This document shows, piece after piece, positions 3,882 to 20,147 of a stretch of DNA of 64,000 nt. A model generated the notes under the pieces. That model made no database searches, had not been told where the DNA came from, and saw only the letters and a list, made by a program, of their open reading frames with translations. This stretch comes from a virus, in the IMG/VR virus record IMGVR_UViG_3300017766_002362, positions 7,785-71,784 of that record; one strand, 5' to 3'. The position numbers and the translations under genes are program-made. Positions within the stretch are counted from its first letter, which is position 1. Each line of letters starts with the position of its first letter.

Positions 3882-4448
3882 TCAATTTCTCCACACTCTA
3901 GAATGTTTTGGGATACTTGCTTTTAGATATTCCATCTGGTCAGCAAGAACCTTGCGATTCTTTAGCAGTATCCGTTCATGTACTGTTGGCGCATAAGGAA
4001 CATAGAGGAGATGCATCTTTGCTTCTTCTGGCGTCTTCCAACCTTTGCGATGATTACAGGGACGGCAAGCAGTGACGCAATTTGTCCACTGGTTGCTACC
4101 TCCACGTGACTTTGGATGCACGTGATCAATTGTAAGTTGGCTTGAACTAAACTCATTACCGCAATATGCACACATATGTTGATCGCGAGAATAAAGAGTC
4201 ATGCGATCTGCGAATTTAGTTTGCTGATTATAAAACTTATCGCCGAGTAATGGTCCACTGACACCAATAATGCATGAAATGTCTATTCGTGATTGTTCGC
4301 CTCGGTAATTATGACCACCGAACATGGTTTTTACTTTTTCGCCAAGTTCCCAGATAACTTTGTCTTTTGCATAGTAACATGCTGCAACTTCAAAGTTACA
4401 CCAGTCTTTGGGCATACCACCTTTATCTACAACTAAGACTAACGACAT
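3882..4448 (-). CDS. HNH endonuclease
   Basis: CAYCG...TIDHVHPKSRGG.NQWTNCVTACRPCN.RKG; true start MSLVLVV at 4448 (longer track ORF runs into tRNA-Leu). Confidence 0.9.
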   Translation of the reverse strand: MSLVLVVDKGGMPKDWCNFEVAACYYAKDKVIWELGEKVKTMFGGHNYRGEQSRIDISCIIGVSGPLLGDKFYNQQTKFADRMTLYSRDQHMCAYCGNEFSSSQLTIDHVHPKSRGGSNQWTNCVTACRPCNHRKGWKTPEEAKMHLLYVPYAPTVHERILLKNRKVLADQMEYLKASIPKHSRVWRN

Positions 4449-4468
4449 ATTCTCCTCTACTTTATTTA

Positions 4469-4552
4469 TGGTGCCCAGAAGAGGACTCGAACCTCCATGC
4501 CTTTCGGCAGTGGCTTCTAAGACCACCGTGTATACCATTCCACCATCTGGGC
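4469..4552 (-). tRNA. tRNA-Leu(TAG)
   Basis: Cloverleaf with long variable arm, CCA end. Confidence 0.9.
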
Positions 4553-7410: not shown

Positions 7411-8402
7411 TTTAAATCCTCCTCGCACATCTCATTTACCAATGAGTGAATATCGTATTTCGGCTGCCAATTCAACAGCGTTTTCGCTTTGGTCGGATCA
7501 CCAAGTAGATTTACTACATCAACTGGTCTGTAGAAATCCTTATTGACCTTAACCCAGATTTTTCCATTCGGATCTCTAGCAACTTCGTCTATGCCAGATC
7601 CTTCCCATGTTAGGTTGACACCAAAATATTTTGCTGCTAGATTACAAAACTCTCGAATAGAGTATTGTTGACCTGTTGCTATAACAAAGTCATCTGGTTC
7701 GTTATGCTGTAGAATTAGCCACATTGCCTCAACATAATCTTTAGCATGACCCCAATCTCTGAGGCTGTCTAGATTGCCTAATTCTACATGACTTTGTAAG
7801 CCACGATGAATATTTGCAAATGCCTTTGTAATCTTTTTAGTCACAAACATCTCGCCTCTTCTGGGACTTTCGTGATTGTATAAAATTCCAGTAGAGGCAA
7901 ACATGTTATAACTGTGTCTGTAATTCTGAACGATCCAGTGAGCATAAAGTTTTGCAACACCATACGGACTTCCTGGATGAAATGGTGTTGATTCATTTTG
8001 AGGAACATTAATGTTAGTTCCATACATCTCACTAGTGCTTGCTTGATAGAATTTACAATTTAATTTAATAGAACGAATAGCCTCTAGAATTCTCAGTGGT
8101 CCCAACCCATCGATTTCGGCAGTGGCTATTGGCATTTCAAAACTGAGTTTTACATGACTTTGAGCAGCCAAGTTGTAAACTTCATCAGGTTGAATGTTTA
8201 AAAGACAGTTCGCCAATGCAGCACTGTCAGTTAGATCTCCGTTATGAAGAACTAACTTGTCTTTGACGTTGGCTATATTAGGATGATTAACAGAAGAAAT
8301 CCTTCTAACCAATCCATGGACTTCGTATCCTTTTTCTAAAAGGAATTCCGCAAGATAACTACCATCTTGTCCAGTCACACCAGTAATAAATGCTTTTTTC
8401 AT
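7395..8402 (-). CDS. gmd: GDP-mannose 4,6-dehydratase
   Basis: ITGVTGQDGSYLAEFLL, YNLAAQSHV, FYQASTSEMYG, NHESPRRG, RDWGHAKDYV. Confidence 0.97.
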   Translation of the reverse strand: MKKAFITGVTGQDGSYLAEFLLEKGYEVHGLVRRISSVNHPNIANVKDKLVLHNGDLTDSAALANCLLNIQPDEVYNLAAQSHVKLSFEMPIATAEIDGLGPLRILEAIRSIKLNCKFYQASTSEMYGTNINVPQNESTPFHPGSPYGVAKLYAHWIVQNYRHSYNMFASTGILYNHESPRRGEMFVTKKITKAFANIHRGLQSHVELGNLDSLRDWGHAKDYVEAMWLILQHNEPDDFVIATGQQYSIREFCNLAAKYFGVNLTWEGSGIDEVARDPNGKIWVKVNKDFYRPVDVVNLLGDPTKAKTLLNWQPKYDIHSLVNEMCEEDLKCVGV

Positions 8403-8426: not shown

Positions 8427-8503
8427 TGGCGCGATCGGAGGGACTCGAACCCCCAACCTAGAGATTAGAAATCTCTTGCACTATCCGATTGTGCTACGAC
8501 CGC
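8427..8503 (-). tRNA. tRNA-Arg(TCT)
   Basis: Cloverleaf, CCA. Confidence 0.9.
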
Positions 8504-8509
8504 AGATAG

Positions 8510-8583
8510 TGGAGCGGGATATCAGAATCGAACTGATGACGAAAGTTTGGAAAACTTTAGTTTTACCATTAAACTAATCCCGC
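8510..8583 (-). tRNA. tRNA-Gly(TCC)
   Basis: Cloverleaf, CCA. Confidence 0.9.
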
Positions 8584-8587
8584 ATTC

Positions 8588-8672
8588 TGGTGCGAATGGT
8601 CGGACTCGAACCGACAAGGCTATCGCCGACAGATTTTAAGTCTGTTGAGTTTACCGATTTCTCCACACTCGC
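8588..8672 (-). tRNA. tRNA-Leu(TAA)
   Basis: Cloverleaf, long variable arm, CCA. Confidence 0.9.
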
Positions 8673-8677
8673 AAAAA

Positions 8678-8754
8678 TGGTCGGACAGAGAGGATTCGAA
8701 CCTCCGACCCTCTGCTCCCAAAGCAGATGCACTACCAGGCTGTGCTACTGTCCG
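8678..8754 (-). tRNA. tRNA-Pro(TGG)
   Basis: Cloverleaf, CCA. Confidence 0.9.
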
Positions 8755-8792
8755 ATGTTTATATCTTACTATATCTATTCCCAAAAGTCAAC

Positions 8793-8869
8793 TGGTGCGC
8801 CCACTAGGACTTGAACCTAGAATCAACAAATTATGAGTTTGCTGCATTAACCAATTATGCTATAGGCGC
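8793..8869 (-). tRNA. tRNA with CAT anticodon (Ile2/lysidine type or Met)
   Basis: CTCATAA loop, CCA; identity ambiguous. Confidence 0.8.
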
Positions 8870-8874
8870 AAATT

Positions 8875-8965
8875 TGGTGCTCCTGCTTGGACTTGAACCA
8901 AGACTAACCTCTAATCTGGAGTTCGGGATTATAAGTCCCGTCGTGCTACCTTACACTACAGGAGC
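8875..8965 (-). tRNA. tRNA with TAT anticodon (Ile) and long variable arm
   Basis: GCTCCTG/CAGGAGC acceptor, CGGGA-CTTATAA-TCCCG anticodon arm, 21-nt variable region, CCA. Confidence 0.85.
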
Positions 8966-8969
8966 AAAA

Positions 8970-9056
8970 TGGCGGAAGGCAGTGTATTCGAAACACATTC
9001 CCGAAGGGAATCATCTGTTTAGCAAACAGCGACAGATCCTCTCTGCTATACCTTCC
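8970..9056 (-). tRNA. tRNA-Ser(GCT)
   Basis: Cloverleaf, long variable arm, CCA. Confidence 0.85.
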
Positions 9057-9060
9057 AAAC

Positions 9061-9137
9061 TGGTGGGACAAGATGGATTCGAACCATCGACCTCAGTCTT
9101 ATCAGGACTGTGCGCTAACCAACTGTGCCATTGTCCC
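9061..9137 (-). tRNA. tRNA-Ile(GAT)
   Basis: Cloverleaf, CCA. Confidence 0.9.
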
Positions 9138-9141
9138 GAAA

Positions 9142-9216
9142 TGGAGTTGCGAACTGGAGTCGAACCAGCATAAGACAGTTTTGCAGACTGTCGCCTGACC
9201 TTTCAGCCACCGCAAC
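9142..9216 (-). tRNA. tRNA-Cys(GCA)
   Basis: Cloverleaf, CCA. Confidence 0.88.
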
Positions 9217-9220
9217 AAAT

Positions 9221-9297
9221 TGGCACCCTCTGAGAGACTTGAACTCCCGACCTCAACGTCCGTAGCGTTGCGTTCTAATCCACTGAACTAAGAGGGC
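9221..9297 (-). tRNA. tRNA-Arg(ACG)
   Basis: Cloverleaf, CCA. Confidence 0.88.
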
Positions 9298-9379
9298 AAA
9301 TAAAGCCTGGTCGTCGTAGAAGGACTTTTCTCGCATCCAGGAATGCGCTACCGATTAACGATGGTAGAACCGCTGCAGG

Positions 9380-9454
9380 TGGTGCCAAGTGTTGGTATCG
9401 AGCCAACCTATCGAGTTCTTCAGACTCGCACTAATCCATCTCAGTTAACTTGGC
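9380..9454 (-). tRNA. tRNA-Phe(GAA)
   Basis: Cloverleaf, CCA. Confidence 0.88.
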
Positions 9455-9461
9455 AAAAAAA

Positions 9462-9537
9462 TGGTAGCAGTGGTGTGATTCGAACACACGATCTTCACCG
9501 TATGAAGGTGCCGCATTAGCCGCTATGCTACACTGCC
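9462..9537 (-). tRNA. tRNA-Met(CAT), elongator-like
   Basis: TTCATAC loop, CCA. Confidence 0.85.
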
Positions 9538-9541
9538 AAAA

Positions 9542-9627
9542 TGGTGGGTAGTGATGGATTCGAACCACCGTAGCCGATAGGCAACAGATTTACAGTCTGT
9601 CTGTTTTAACCACTCACACAACTACCC
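9542..9627 (-). tRNA. tRNA-Tyr(GTA)
   Basis: Cloverleaf, long variable arm, CCA. Confidence 0.9.
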
Positions 9628-9631
9628 GAAC

Positions 9632-9705
9632 TGGCTGAGGCGCATGGATTCGAACCACGGTAAGCAGGATCAAAACCTGCTGTCCTACCACTAGACGACG
9701 CCTCA
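9632..9705 (-). tRNA. tRNA-Gln(TTG)
   Basis: Cloverleaf, CCA. Confidence 0.9.
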
Positions 9706-9710
9706 AGAAT

Positions 9711-9963
9711 TAGTTGCTTCCCCCTGCTGGTGGTCACTTTTCATCCACTTCACAACACAGGGAGATTCTCGTATTGCCAACGACCGTTCGGTTGGACGGC
9801 AGATTTCTCTGGGCTTCATTGACTCATCTGCGTTGCCACAGTGAGGTGTTGCCAAACCACCCATGCTTGTCACAGCATTTCTTTATCGTCTGGGTCAGAC
9901 TAGCCACTAACAATGGCGCGACATGATAGCCGAAGCGTACATTGCTGCAGAGGCTTCGGGCAT
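9711..9963 (-). ncRNA. Candidate structured ncRNA (~250 nt) inside tRNA array
   Basis: Many stems and GCAA tetraloops on the minus strand; no credible ORF. Confidence 0.55.
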
Positions 9964-9967
9964 ATTT

Positions 9968-10042
9968 TGGTGGAGGATGAGAGAATCGAACTCTCAACTC
10001 TGCGATGCAAACGCAGCGTGTTCCCATTAGCACTAATCCCCC
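9968..10042 (-). tRNA. tRNA-Ala(TGC)
   Basis: Cloverleaf, CCA. Confidence 0.9.
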
Positions 10043-10047
10043 AAATA

Positions 10048-10122
10048 TGGCTGGCGTGGTAGGGATCGAACCTACGACAGAGTGATTAACAGTCACTTGA
10101 TCTACCGCTGATCTACACGCCA
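10048..10122 (-). tRNA. tRNA-Asn(GTT)
   Basis: Cloverleaf, CCA. Confidence 0.9.
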
Positions 10123-10132
10123 AAAAATAAAC

Positions 10133-10206
10133 TGGTATCCCGATACGGACTCGAACCGCAACCAAGAGTTTTGGAGACTCGTATGCTACCATTACACCAT
10201 CGAGAT
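10133..10206 (-). tRNA. tRNA-Trp(CCA)
   Basis: Cloverleaf, CCA end. Confidence 0.88.
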
Positions 10207-10210
10207 AAGT

Positions 10211-10286
10211 TGGTGGGTCTAGCAGGATTCGAACCTGCATCAAACTGGTTAAGAGCCAGATATAATCACCGTTATACGATAGACCC
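10211..10286 (-). tRNA. tRNA-Lys(CTT)
   Basis: Cloverleaf, CCA. Confidence 0.88.
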
Positions 10287-10293
10287 AAACGTA

Positions 10294-10367
10294 TGGTAGG
10301 GCTGGAGGGTAACGCTCCCTCTTTTACGGATTAAAAGTCCGTTACATCACTTTAATGTTTCAACCCC
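10294..10367 (-). tRNA. tRNA-Lys(TTT), non-canonical T-loop
   Basis: CTTTTAA loop; T-loop AGCGTTA. Confidence 0.8.
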
Positions 10368-10390
10368 AAAAAAATCATAACAAAGTAATC

Positions 10391-10465
10391 TGGTGAACCC
10401 AAGGGAATTCGAATCCCTATTCCATCCGTGAAAGGGATGTGTCCTAACCGTTAGACGATGGGTCC
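10391..10465 (-). tRNA. tRNA-Glu(TTC)
   Basis: Cloverleaf, CCA. Confidence 0.9.
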
Positions 10466-10471
10466 GCAAAA

Positions 10472-10597
10472 ACCATATTGAAGCACACTCAATACATTCT
10501 ACTATGCTGGTACATAATATTTTCGCAGTCTACCAGGACCACCGAACAGAGCACCGTTTCCGCACGGTGATGTCCGTTGAATATGCTTCAATATGGT
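10472..10597 (-). ncRNA. Candidate small RNA closed by a 21-bp stem
   Basis: ACCATATTGAAGCATATTCAA pairs with TTGAGTGTGCTTCAATATGGT (two G-U pairs); internal hairpins. Confidence 0.55.
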
Positions 10598-10668
10598 GCC
10601 TTCAGAGAGATTTGAACTCCCAACCTACTGATTACAAATCAGTTGCACTACCGTTGTGCTATGAAGGC
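10594..10668 (-). tRNA. tRNA-Thr(TGT)
   Basis: Cloverleaf, CCA. Confidence 0.9.
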
Positions 10669-10754
10669 AGAATTGATACCTGCCCCAACTCCCGCAGAAT
10701 ATCGTGGTCTCCCATCTCTGAATAGAGAATCAAAACCTTACCCAAGAAACCTAC

Positions 10755-10863
10755 AATTTTAAACAGCAAGAGCAATCGCGAAGGACGCTCAACTCATACA
10801 ATCATTATACCGTATGAGGTCTTACAAGTAAACTAAAAAAACTCTATAAAAATCAATAACTTA
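10755..10863 (-). promoter_or_regulatory. tRNA-operon promoter (TTTACT-N17-TATAAT) with IHF-like box (10851-10863), leader hairpin and boxA-like element (10755-10768)
   Basis: Read directly; TGCTGTTTAAAATT compared with rrn boxA TGCTCTTTAACA. Confidence 0.7.
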
Positions 10864-10998
10864 GAAAAAGGTCGCAGTTTTCGATGCAGGGAGGGAAACA
10901 ACTAGTAGCATCTTGGGACTTTGTCCTACCAAACAAGTTTTGGGCGTCGCGAATCACGCAGAAATACATTTAAATTATATAGTACAATTTCGAAAAAA

Positions 10999-11883
10999 TC
11001 AACCTTCTTTAATAAATTTTATGACTAGATATGTTTGAACAAAAACAGCAATTGACATTAACCAGCCGACCGTAGTTCCAGCATTAACTAAAGCAAGATA
11101 TACGCTGATGCTCAATAAAAAAATATCAAGAACAGGAATCATGCGTACTCCGTGACTTTGTCTAGACGCTTCATAGGATAAGCACACTTGGCTTCCTTGC
11201 GCATCTTACTCTGATATTCTACCGTACAGTCGAAGCAAATGTCAAGCGTCTTGCTGTTCTTAACAATTTGTAGTTCTTGTTGGTAAATCTTCCACTGGTA
11301 TTCAGTGAAGCATAGTGGTTTTATATCAACGCGCATTGTCGTTTTCCTTGTTCAATATATCTTTTAAATTTTTAAAAAGATCTCTATCATTTAATTTTAA
11401 GTCTGTGGCGAATTGTCTAAGATCTATTTGTTTTAGAGTTTCTAAAAGGACAACTAAATCATGATCATATTCATCTACTTCCGATTCAATGTCAAATTTA
11501 TTAAACTTGTTCATCTTTCACATCCTCAAAGTGAAACCACTCACAAATCTCATTCAGAACTGCTCGCTCAATCTGTTCGCGAACATGATGATCTTCTGGT
11601 TGATCAGTATGCTTATACGCACGATTCCAACCAAGCATAACGCCAGTCTCAACACACTGAGCAATTAGATTATATTCTTTTGCTTTCATTTTCCAAGCAT
11701 CTCCTTTCGTTCCTTCCACCAACGAATGGCTTCTTTGATTTCATCCATCTGTTCCAATCGAATTGTATCTAGAAAGCCCATTCCAAGAAACTCGCATTCT
11801 ATGTTTCGTTTCGTCATTTCCCAAAGTTTGTCATGGTGCTTTTGCAGCACATCAAGAACGACATCGTATTCTTCTTCGATCAT
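10999..11883 (-). CDS. Run of five small coupled hypothetical ORFs (10999-11142, 11139-11336, 11326-11514, 11501-11689, 11686-11883)
   Basis: Overlapping stop/start codons typical of a phage early operon. Confidence 0.6.
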
Positions 11884-11998
11884 TCTTCATCTCCAAAAAA
11901 TGCGAATCAAAATTGGTCCAATGCGAACATCACGATAAGGATTGCCATTGTTGAATCGCACGGTTGATCCGAATGACCATCGCTTGACCCAATGAATA

Positions 11999-18962: not shown

Positions 18963-19961
18963 TTACGGCTTAAAGTTTTTCATGACTTTGACATCTTTTC
19001 TTACTTGCGCAAGTTCAGATGAGTCAAGAGAAACTAGACCACGGTCTGAAAGATAACCTTCCTCGCCAATGGCTTTGTTACTCACGTACTCTTCCGCAAA
19101 TTCTTTTAGACCAGGAATGACACCAATGTGTGCTTTCTTGATATAAACGAAAAGTGGTCGAGCCGCAGTATATTTAGCACTGGAGATTGTTTCGAATGTA
19201 GGAGCAATACCGTCGATTTTTAACGCTTTGATTCGATCAGCGTTCTCTTCTAGGAAACTATAACCAAAAATACCAAGAGCATTCTTATTGCCAACTAATT
19301 TTTGAACAATCAAATTATCATTCTCACCTGCTTCAACGTAAGCACCGTCTTCACGAATTAGATGACACTTCTTTTTGTCATCAAATGGGCAACCTGATTC
19401 CATAAACAATTCATGAAATGAATCGCGTGTGCCAGAAGTTGGTGGCGGACCAAGCACTTCAATTTTTGTTGCTGGTAATTTTGCATCAATTTGATTCCAT
19501 GTCTTATATGGATTTGGAATTAAATTTCCTGATGCATCTGGAATTTGCTTTGCTAATGCTTTCCAAAGTTGTTCCTTTGTGATGTTAGTGAACTTACCTG
19601 CTTTTGATTCGGCAACTGTTAAGCCATCGTAACCAATTTTAATTTCAATGATTTCATTGACACCATTTTTGGCGCAAGTATCAAACTCGCCTTTCTTCAT
19701 TGCGCGTGATGCATTCGCAACATCTGGGAATTGTGGACCAACACCATTACAAAATAACTTGATGCCACCACCAGTGCCTGTTGATTCTACTTTTGGTGTC
19801 TTGAACTTCCCAACACGACCAAATTGTTCAGCAACAGTTGTTGTGAATGGATATACTGTTGAAGATCCTACTGCTGTAATTTGATCTCTGCCTTGTGCGT
19901 TTGCGACATGAGAGACAACGAGTAGGGTGAAAGCAAAAAGAATTGCTAGTTTAGATTTCAT
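18963..19961 (-). CDS. pstS: Phosphate ABC transporter substrate-binding protein
   Basis: VGSSTVYPF, ESTGTGGG.KLFC, NASR, GPPPTSGTRDSF. Confidence 0.93.
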   Translation of the reverse strand: MKSKLAILFAFTLLVVSHVANAQGRDQITAVGSSTVYPFTTTVAEQFGRVGKFKTPKVESTGTGGGIKLFCNGVGPQFPDVANASRAMKKGEFDTCAKNGVNEIIEIKIGYDGLTVAESKAGKFTNITKEQLWKALAKQIPDASGNLIPNPYKTWNQIDAKLPATKIEVLGPPPTSGTRDSFHELFMESGCPFDDKKKCHLIREDGAYVEAGENDNLIVQKLVGNKNALGIFGYSFLEENADRIKALKIDGIAPTFETISSAKYTAARPLFVYIKKAHIGVIPGLKEFAEEYVSNKAIGEEGYLSDRGLVSLDSSELAQVRKDVKVMKNFKP

Positions 19962-20035: not shown

Positions 20036-20147
20036 TATCGTCACGCGCTGCGCATCGCGTCCTAGATTCCTCTTTTACAAAGACAGCCATCGCTATGCGA
20101 CAAACCTTACACCGAAAGGTAGGGCGGCTGGTTGTGTATTTAGTATT

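Follow-up and report, generated by a model that had tools for sequence, protein, structure and literature searches.

What occupies a 262-nucleotide (nt) gap between two genes of a phage transfer RNA (tRNA) array whose members mostly lie only a few nt apart? This question is raised by a 64,000-nt stretch of an IMG/VR virus record (IMGVR_UViG_3300017766_002362, positions 7,785 to 71,784), referred to here in its entirety as the window. An earlier note, prepared from the sequence alone, had drawn attention to about 250 nt of the minus strand as a single, highly structured and possibly undescribed phage non-coding RNA (ncRNA) within a tRNA array. We confirm the location, a gap at 9706-9967 between tRNA-Ala and tRNA-Gln, and find that it contains a real RNA gene belonging to a family that is uncatalogued in Rfam. 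The single RNA of the earlier note resolves into two units, a 211-nt core at 9712-9922 (minus strand) and a separate 45-nt hairpin. The impression that most neighbouring spacers span a few nt is borne out by the main array (8427-10668), in which 11 of 17 gaps between successive tRNAs measure 10 nt or less.

Relatives of the gap sequence form a covarying RNA family

An exact 30-mer scan of viral contigs returned three copies of the element that are 95-98% identical to that of the window. Alignment of the close copies (loci carry our L numbers, L001 being the window's own) outlines a sharply bounded conserved block set in neighbouring sequence that differs: L083 has extra sequence upstream of the block, and the block is followed downstream by tRNA-Val in two copies (L082 and L083) but by tRNA-Gln in L084, as in the window. 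The changes that separate these copies preserve pairing on the minus strand, either by exchanging C-G for U-G and U-G for C-G or, in L082, through a paired insertion that converts CAGA-GAAA-UCUG into CAGUA-GAAA-UACUG. The earlier assignment of the element to this strand was right.

Diverged relatives were sought by iterated nhmmer in 76 loci that have a tRNA-Ala 3' end in common with the window. Homologues appeared in a further eleven of these loci, and full-length members are present in 14 of the 76 and absent from 62, many of the loci being partial arrays only. None was found by nhmmer in 80 loci (L002-L081) that had been chosen through a neighbouring GDP-mannose dehydratase gene. A 24-letter degenerate pattern taken from the most conserved stretch of the element (hairpins P4 and P5, below) was used to scan viral contigs and returned at least 120 stretches; over all the loci collected there were 127 long nhmmer hits and 109 distinct sequences of 157-294 nt. 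Members range from 156 to 293 nt and vary in length through expansions at three sites. A covariance model built from 51 members, R1, gave exactly 100 hits over 100 sources, one in each, indicating a single copy per contig. R1 aligns to the window element over its full length (model positions 1-200) with 93.7 bits and an E-value of 5.8e-30; this is its only match in the window, and the same place is recovered when the whole record is searched.

Fifty-one short members were aligned with MAFFT and helices first proposed from this alignment by eye; in it, 91.6% of cells pair, as opposed to 72.0% in shuffled alignments, 33 of 40 pairs have changed on both sides, and the covariation score is 0.553 against 0.212 in shuffles, with slid controls reaching at most 0.118. 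When 100 members were fitted to R1, 96.5% of cells paired (72.3% in shuffles) and the covariation score rose to 0.644 against 0.214, a value that none of 500 shuffles reached and that slid controls, at no more than 0.095, did not approach; relatives collected from viral contigs, a check the earlier note had suggested, carry compensatory changes in 35 of the 40 pairs. Because this alignment leans towards the model and most of its members were fetched with the P4-P5 pattern, the count was repeated on 15 sequences obtained without the pattern, among which 95.2% of cells pair (74.5% in shuffles), 31 of 37 pairs are compensatory and the score is 0.542 against 0.203. In an unsupervised scan for mutual information, the 18 top-ranking column pairs are all pairs of the model.

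The conserved fold contains a pseudoknot

The family fold comprises five hairpins (P1-P5) and a long arm, with variable expansions at three sites. From 5' to 3' it runs through a leader AACGU, P1, the dinucleotide UA, P2 with a loop gACCC, the junction GAUGAGAAG, P3, the junction GGGUGGU, P4 with its loop ..AACCGAA, P5 directly after it (CGY[UGGCAAU]RCG), AGAA, the long arm, which consists of P6, P7 and usually P8-P9 with internal loops, and a tail ..AGCA. The parts of the window copy and its flanking genes, in the direction of the RNA, are as follows.

9968-10042, minus strand: upstream tRNA-Ala(UGC), called by ARAGORN and Rfam; its CCA end abuts the unit
9923-9967, minus strand: accessory hairpin CCGAAGC..GCAA..GCUUCGG, directly 5' of the core and outside the family core
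9712-9922, minus strand: core ncRNA gene, full-length R1 match of 211 nt
9903-9917, minus strand: P1 hairpin GCCAU/GUGGC; 5 of 5 pairs compensatory, 97.4% of cells pair
9888-9900, minus strand: P2 hairpin GUCUG-ACC-CAGAC; 99.5% paired, loop ACC at 9893-9895 forms pseudoknot PK1
9877-9887, minus strand: junction J2/3, GAUAAAGAAAU (family consensus GAUGAGAAG); conserved unpaired bases
9863-9878, minus strand: P3 hairpin AUGCU-GUGACA-AGCAU; 4 of 4 model pairs compensatory, 97.0% of cells pair
9856-9862, minus strand: junction J3/4, GGGUGGU; GGU at 9859-9861 pairs with the P2 loop (PK1)
9800-9855, minus strand: lineage-specific 56-nt expansion between J3/4 and P4; two GNRA hairpins, 9823-9845 (GCAA) and 9800-9811 (GAAA)
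9784-9799, minus strand: P4 hairpin CCGU-[CCAACCGA]-ACGG with loop ..AACCGAA; read by eye in the window
9770-9782, minus strand: P5 hairpin CGU-[UGGCAAU]-ACG; 3-bp stem and 7-nt T-loop-like loop
9720-9764, minus strand: long arm, made of P6, an internal loop and P7 with a shortened apex; P6 and P7 covary
9758-9764 with 9720-9726, minus strand: P6, CUCCCUG/CAGGGGG; covaries
9749-9757, minus strand: internal loop UGUUGUGAA of the long arm
9745-9748 with 9730-9733, minus strand: P7, GUGG/CCAC; covaries, apex 9734-9744 without P8/P9
9712-9719, minus strand: 3' tail AAGCAACU (family ..AGCA..); ends 6 nt before tRNA-Gln
9632-9705, minus strand: downstream tRNA-Gln(UUG), called by ARAGORN and Rfam

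Beyond these helices, the ACC of the P2 loop pairs with the GGU of GGGU in the GGGUGGU junction, and this pairing (PK1) makes the RNA a pseudoknot. Its three pairs are A-U in 98 and G-C in 1 of 100 members, C-G in 92 and U-A in 6, and C-G in 94, A-U in 2 and U-A in 1, which amounts to 10 doubly changed sequences over the three pairs. The second GGU of the junction may likewise pair with the ACC of the P4 loop, for which invariance leaves no covariation: both are unchanged in 107 of 109 unique sequences, the exceptions being L142, in which an A-to-G change gives U-G, and L123, which lacks both. Covariation is also seen in the third pair of P5 (C-G 64, U-A 36) and between the last base of the P5 loop and J5/6 (U-A 81, C-G 16, U-G 3). 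Four lone covarying pairs, G4-C18 (G-C 66, C-G 16, G-U 9), U43-A61 (U-A 72, A-U 17), C274-G446 (C-G 76, U-A 11, U-G 6) and G278-C445 (G-C 88, C-G 7), are consistent with Watson-Crick pairing, and each may reflect a single clade-level event.

About 35 unpaired positions are kept in at least 95 of 100 members, although the search pattern itself covered those in the P4 loop and P5. Departures do occur in members fetched independently of the pattern: the P5 loop is different in L082, L137 and L142, and P4 is missing from L123. Of 100 members, 99-100 retain G41, A42, A48 and A49 in J2/3, and 98-100 retain A459, G460, C461 and A462 in the tail.

The window copy contains P1-P3, P5-P7, PK1 and, 5' of P5, a P4 with the ..AACCGAA loop, and is thus a member of the family. 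R1 placed its P4 in an insert owing to the 56-nt expansion; in the family all four P4 pairs are compensatory and 97.9% of cells pair. The expansion itself is absent from L156, L102, L094, L142 and L128 and is different in L113, L137, L136 and L089. At the other end of the molecule, P7 of the window and of its closest relatives (L083, L084 and L087) ends in a short loop of 9-11 nt without P8/P9, whereas in L082, at 95% identity, and in most other members the apex extends further, into P8/P9 with an internal loop UGAU/UGAU, the apex insertion in L082 being 44 nt relative to the window. The P8/P9 apical extension is peripheral and dispensable.

Six of the eight helices drawn in the earlier note hold and two were mis-drawn. 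Its GCCA/TGGC, GTCT/AGAC, ATGCT/AGCAT and CCCTG/CAGGG pairings correspond to P1, P2, P3 and P6, all confirmed by covariation; its CTCA..GCAA..TGAG helix is a hairpin of the lineage-specific expansion, kept in close relatives through C-G to U-G and U-G to C-G changes; and its CCGAAGC/GCTTCGG helix with an inner GCAA is real, with two compensatory changes, but constitutes the separate 45-nt module. The proposed GGTG/CACC helix is possible in this lineage only: the expansion offers a CACC to the GGUG of the junction, a pairing that is absent outside the lineage and would compete with PK1 for GGGUGGU. The bases assigned to CCAAC/GTTGG were wrongly paired: they belong to the P4 loop, conserved as ..AACCGAA, and to the 5' strand of P5.

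Because most relatives start with AACGU directly after a tRNA CCA, the 45-nt hairpin is not part of the conserved unit and would instead be an extra module of the spacer. It occurs in seven loci including the window's own L001; in five of them it lies directly 5' of the core, and in two (L091 and L104) it stands alone in front of tRNA-Gln. Its compensatory changes are A-U to C-G and G-C to A-U. In three loci a spacer of about 115 nt separates tRNA-Ala from this hairpin (L083 9315-9428, L091 2382-2496 and L104 1975-2089) and is probably another conserved small unit of these arrays.

Folding energy, known RNA families and coding potential

On the minus strand the minimum free energy (MFE) is -80.7 kcal/mol, with a z-score of -1.28, and 22 of 200 shuffled sequences fold equally well; on the plus strand z is -0.12. 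When the family helices are enforced, the window sequence folds at -77.0 kcal/mol, compared with -80.7 unconstrained. Since this MFE is unremarkable, the earlier description of the RNA as highly structured was not established by the sequence by itself; it is covariation among the relatives that demonstrates the structure.

We compared the element with Rfam 15, which comprises 4227 models including tRNA, tmRNA, RNase P, signal recognition particle (SRP) RNA, 6S, T-box, group I and II introns, hepatitis delta virus (HDV)-like and other ribozymes, GOLLD and ROOL. Nothing matched the gap in the window at gathering scores or at E<=10 except one 10.5-bit chance match to a long non-coding RNA on the plus strand, in agreement with the earlier remark that signatures of tmRNA, RNase P and SRP RNA are lacking; the earlier note had proposed an Rfam search as a check. 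Nor did the element of eight further members match anything at E<=1, the sole exception being a 28.6-bit sX4 hit placed mostly over the adjacent tRNA. Two resemblances were rejected. An SRP-like reading of the ..GGAAGCA tail fails in that members of one type end in GAAGCA and those of the other in CAGAGCA, and SRP models give no match; a T-box reading of GGGUGGUA fails in that the pseudoknot already uses its GGGU part, and T-box models give no match either.

Could the gap simply be filled by sequence with no function of its own, such as decayed tRNA genes, the remnant of an intron or mobile element, or a spacer that folds by chance? Its 262 nt correspond to about three tRNA lengths, the MFE z-score is only -1.28, and tRNA arrays are shuffled by homing endonucleases, HNH genes of this kind being present in the window and near the family RNA in 10 of 125 loci, which agrees with such shuffling. 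Nevertheless, neither ARAGORN nor the Rfam tRNA model (RF00005) calls a tRNA inside 9706-9967, no intron or other model matches there, the RNA occurs once per contig with a core that is conserved while its neighbours change, and compensatory changes in 35 of 40 pairs across 100 diverged members contradict this explanation, which we regard as very improbable.

We attach next to no weight to the possibility that the element encodes a small protein, in a 56-amino-acid minus-strand or a 70-amino-acid plus-strand frame. Open reading frames (ORFs) do exist in the window at 9703-9873 (minus strand) and 9714-9926 (plus strand), and in 54 of 100 members a frame, mostly an antisense one, stays open for 90% or more of the length. 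However, 39% of shuffled sequences also have such a frame, member lengths modulo 3 split 40/31/29, and substitutions follow the base pairs. Furthermore, the distances from one conserved anchor to another fall into every residue class modulo 3 (36/32/30 and 39/40/41/38 nt), and hence no reading frame is preserved on either strand.

Phage distribution of the family

By its gene content, the window is a fragment of a T4-like cyanophage. The record behind it has 71,784 bases and a completeness estimate of 41%, and the genes of the window are of the T4-like cyanophage type: a GDP-mannose dehydratase and an aminotransferase adjoining the tRNA array, a PstS-like protein, a 2OG-Fe(II) oxygenase, ribonucleotide reductase, primase and baseplate proteins. 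DNA and protein searches with the window returned matches almost exclusively to Synechococcus and Prochlorococcus myoviruses, the nearest cultured phage being S-RIM32 (Kyanoviridae), with 62% identity in a virion protein.

Cultured phages yielded no relatives of the RNA in any of our searches. Neither the window element nor a consensus-like member matched 50,697 GenBank records of cultured phages by blastn in its distant mode, and the 56-nt core of the consensus-like member gave, at E<=10, only three 23-nt chance matches in Pseudomonas phage terminase genes. R1 found nothing in the whole genomes of S-RIM32, S-SRM01, S-CAM7, DSL-LC02 and S-CRM01 (0 of 5, run without a positive control) or, in a repeat with the window's record as positive control, in S-RIM32, S-SRM01, S-CRM01 and T4 (0 of 4), such that six cultured T4-type genomes in total, T4 included, are without a match. 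A T4-type Gp23 capsid protein is encoded in 10 of 17 large carrier records and in 5 of the 6 that are at least 90% complete. Together, these cultured-phage nulls and Gp23 counts indicate that the carriers are mostly large T4-type phages known only from metagenomes. The family may reach beyond T4-type phages, given that G006, the record behind L180 (342,865 bases, 99% complete), carries the RNA and has no match to the T4 Gp23 family.

Outside phages, a scan of 185,579 prokaryote genomes, one per species, with the same pattern returned nine stretches, all of them short local matches and none full length, against a chance expectation that we roughly estimate at about 17. On the evidence of these scans the family is restricted to phages and widespread among them.

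Our literature searches returned no paper describing this RNA family. A catalogue of 8,495 candidate structured RNAs of 29-151 nt from IMG/VR (Fremin et al. 2023, PMC10690425) has no description of it in the accessible parts of its main text, and its supplementary lists may contain pieces of the family. A T4-like cyanophage fragment that carries a member of a covarying family with neither a preserved frame nor an Rfam match supports the earlier conjecture of an undescribed phage ncRNA.

Genomic neighbours, transcription and release

The RNA lives predominantly among tRNAs: they are present in 89 of 100 member loci, and in 88 of these 89 all of them lie on the strand of the RNA. Members start 0-4 nt after a tRNA in 47 of 100 cases and end within 8 nt of the next tRNA in 37, with adjacency on both sides in 27 and on either side in 57; in 20 loci the next tRNA begins 0-1 nt after the RNA. 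Twelve tRNA identities are found on each side, so the core sits between many different tRNAs.

This geometry invites the idea that the element is a self-cleaving or processing ribozyme that would cut at its own 5' edge and thereby free the 3' end of the preceding tRNA. The 47 members that begin immediately behind a tRNA fit this idea, as do the knotted fold and the near-invariant unpaired nucleotides, which exceed what a simple protein-binding hairpin needs, and theta ribozymes are a precedent for phage ribozymes at exactly this position (PMC10879173). Yet no ribozyme family in Rfam matches the window at E<=10 or eight members at E<=1, no more than one covarying pair joins the 5' leader to the P1 loop, and the order of strands is unlike that of the HDV fold. 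Moreover, 53 of 100 members do not lie directly behind a tRNA and 11 loci are without one, in the window the 45-nt hairpin separates the core from tRNA-Ala, and an RNA-library contig is uncut across both junctions, albeit one that could be precursor or DNA. On balance, our analysis makes a ribozyme of this kind unlikely.

The same 53 and 11 loci mean that processing of tRNAs cannot be the sole release route. As an account of release where tRNAs do flank the RNA, however, it would fit their geometry. No promoter-like or terminator-like site was found next to the window element, promoter-like sites being located upstream of the array at about 10.8-11.2 kb, and on this ground the RNA would be transcribed as part of a polycistronic tRNA operon. 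An RNase P cut at the 5' end of the next tRNA, here tRNA-Gln, would define the 3' end of the unit, and its 5' end would arise when the 3' side of the preceding tRNA is processed.

Metatranscriptomes provide further evidence, and transcription of the element is likely. Six runs from six studies hold parts of a 901-nt stretch, uncovered parts of which count as no evidence either way; of the four runs examined, from four studies, all yielded contigs with the element. One RNA-library contig, 325 nt long and identical to window positions 9670-9994, reaches from tRNA-Gln across the element to tRNA-Ala; a second, of 168 nt, is the same as 9785-9952; and two runs also contain a relative with 90 different letters in place of 9783-9922.

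Protein neighbours were compared by clustering 1,358 ORFs within 4 kb of the RNA in 125 loci. A gene for the MazG pyrophosphohydrolase starts 19-44 nt downstream of the RNA, on the same strand, in 10 of these loci, four of which have no tRNA, and lies upstream in two more, with six of all 12 MazG loci being free of tRNAs (the MazG clade comprises L165, L183, L214, L225, L254, L264, L266, L199, L210 and L257). This arrangement, along with the resemblance of the conserved junctions and pseudoknot to ligand-binding cores, could suggest a cis-acting sensor, namely a riboswitch-like aptamer or leader that controls downstream tRNAs or, in one clade, mazG. We consider such a sensor quite improbable: what lies downstream is inconsistent, with twelve different tRNAs following directly and MazG upstream in two loci; no terminator-like or sequestering expression platform is present, and in 20 of 100 loci the next tRNA is 0-1 nt away; and at 156-293 nt with three variable expansions the RNA is large for an aptamer.

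Comparison with known phage RNAs and a proposed role

By context, the closest analogues of the family are RNAC (species 1, 139 nt) and RNAD (species 2, 119 nt) of phage T4. T4 annotation places both beside tRNAs and, like the family RNA, they are non-tRNA RNAs encoded in a T4-type tRNA cluster on the tRNA strand. RNAC and RNAD are co-transcribed with the tRNAs and released by RNase P and 3' maturation. The family RNA differs from them in being longer (156-293 nt) and pseudoknotted and in lacking the T-arm-like 3' end that we see by eye in rnaC, and R1 finds no match in T4, either in the tRNA region at E<=1 or in the whole genome at E<=0.01 with the window as positive control. Its probable biogenesis resembles a known kind, that of the stable RNAs of phage tRNA operons, whereas the molecule itself is new and elaborate. 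Of the two small RNAs that are transcripts of T4's tRNA region it has been written that "their biological roles are unknown" (PMC3014915).

As for other structured phage RNAs, the Rfam models for GOLLD and ROOL do not match the family RNA. GOLLD and ROOL are orphan structured RNAs of phages that often lie beside tRNA genes and are several-fold larger than the RNA described here. Both are reported to form RNA-only oligomers (PMC12286853). Theta ribozymes, which are minimal HDV-like ribozymes found at tRNA 3' ends in phage genomes and proposed to mature the tRNA (PMC10879173), are like the family RNA in being knotted and situated beside phage tRNAs. They are small, however, while the family RNA differs in the order of its strands, frequently has no tRNA directly beside it and matches no ribozyme in Rfam.

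A further likeness concerns the double T-loop module that contacts the tRNA elbow in T-box Stem I, RNase P and the L1 stalk through conserved AG..A and UG..A T-loops (PMC3664808). The family RNA, itself found among tRNAs, has a UG..A pentad (UGGCA) in the 7-nt loop of P5 and an AGAA(G/A) junction rich in purines; in the pentad U245 is kept in 100, G246 in 99 and A249 in 98 of 100 members, most of which were fetched with a pattern containing UGGCA. The would-be AG..A pentad, however, has A as its fifth base in only 21 of 100 members and G in the other 79, neither the closing pair nor the U251-A258 pair is that of a tRNA-type T-loop, and no T-box or RNase P model matches. At the level of sequence motifs, this likeness is a lead only. 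It underlies a rather improbable scenario in which the family would be a new class of large functional RNA with tRNAs as its direct targets during infection. The RNA would grip tRNA in the manner of RNase P or a T-box, using the UGGCA T-loop platform and the purine-rich junction for the elbow and the GGU tract for the ACCA end, and would in this way shield, sequester or process tRNAs. If this were true, phages would be contesting the tRNA pool with a counter-measure made of RNA alone, or with a new ribozyme.

Taken together, these data lead us to favour, at somewhat better than even confidence, the reading that 9712-9922 (minus strand) is a single-copy gene for a compact, pseudoknotted phage ncRNA that is co-transcribed with tRNAs, released by tRNA enzymes and active in trans. 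Once released, the RNA would act as a stable folded molecule, and we speculate that its conserved core could offer a surface, for binding or catalysis, to a partner that belongs to tRNA or translation metabolism or to a host defence directed against it. Phage tRNA arrays counteract defences that target tRNAs, and they have come to be viewed as counter-defence loci (PMC13096335).

Several observations weigh against this trans-acting reading. The z-score of the window copy's own MFE is only -1.28, and the copy is atypical, with a large expansion, no P8/P9 and an R1 score among the lowest of 100 members. The invariance of P4-P5 arises partly by construction, through members fetched with the pattern. 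In 11 of 100 loci no tRNA lies in the stretch available, and 53 of 100 members are not directly behind one. No protein neighbour is constant across the 125 loci, in which the best cluster is an RNaseH_like protein (27 of 125) and MazG occurs in 12. Finally, the RNA-library evidence consists of assembled contigs, and DNA can be present in such libraries, for which there was no silent control stretch.

Other features of the window

The window contains 22 tRNA genes by ARAGORN, all on the minus strand. Two additional tRNA-like genes, 9383-9454 and 10297-10367 (both minus strand), are found by Rfam only, with 47.7 and 41.9 bits, and may be aberrant tRNAs that ARAGORN misses. The tRNA-Ile(UAU) at 8875-8965 (minus strand) was called at 91 nt, which is unusually long for a class I tRNA. 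Other long tRNA-free spacers of the array, at 8966-9060, 9298-9382 and 10466-10593 (95, 85 and 128 nt), and a stretch of about 1.3 kb upstream of the array (10669-11990) that is without an ORF of at least 90 amino acids may hold other small RNA modules. In a second tRNA cluster, the HNH homing-endonuclease ORF at 3882-4538 (minus strand), as listed, overlaps the start of tRNA-Leu (4469-4552).

Elsewhere in the window, the COG2908 RNA motif of Rfam matches 20085-20129 (minus strand) strongly, its 73 bits exceeding the gathering score of 58.7. From there the gene for the PstS-like phosphate-binding protein (18963-19961, minus strand) is about 125 nt downstream, and a PstS-like gene in a cyanophage is an unusual host gene for this motif.

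Implications for phage biology

The two odd RNAs of the T4 tRNA cluster have been without a known job for fifty years, and our analysis adds that in large uncultured T4-type lake phages, among them cyanophage-like ones, the corresponding slot is taken by an RNA that is unrelated to those two and much more elaborate. The structural model, its pseudoknot and the covariance model make direct tests possible; R1 and the fold could also enter RNA catalogues, so that such gaps in phage genomes would no longer be annotated as empty. Strong conservation of an unpaired core is usual in ribozymes, riboswitches and ribonucleoprotein scaffolds, and on the strength of such conservation the family is a good candidate for a new functional class of RNA in the conflict between phage and host over translation.

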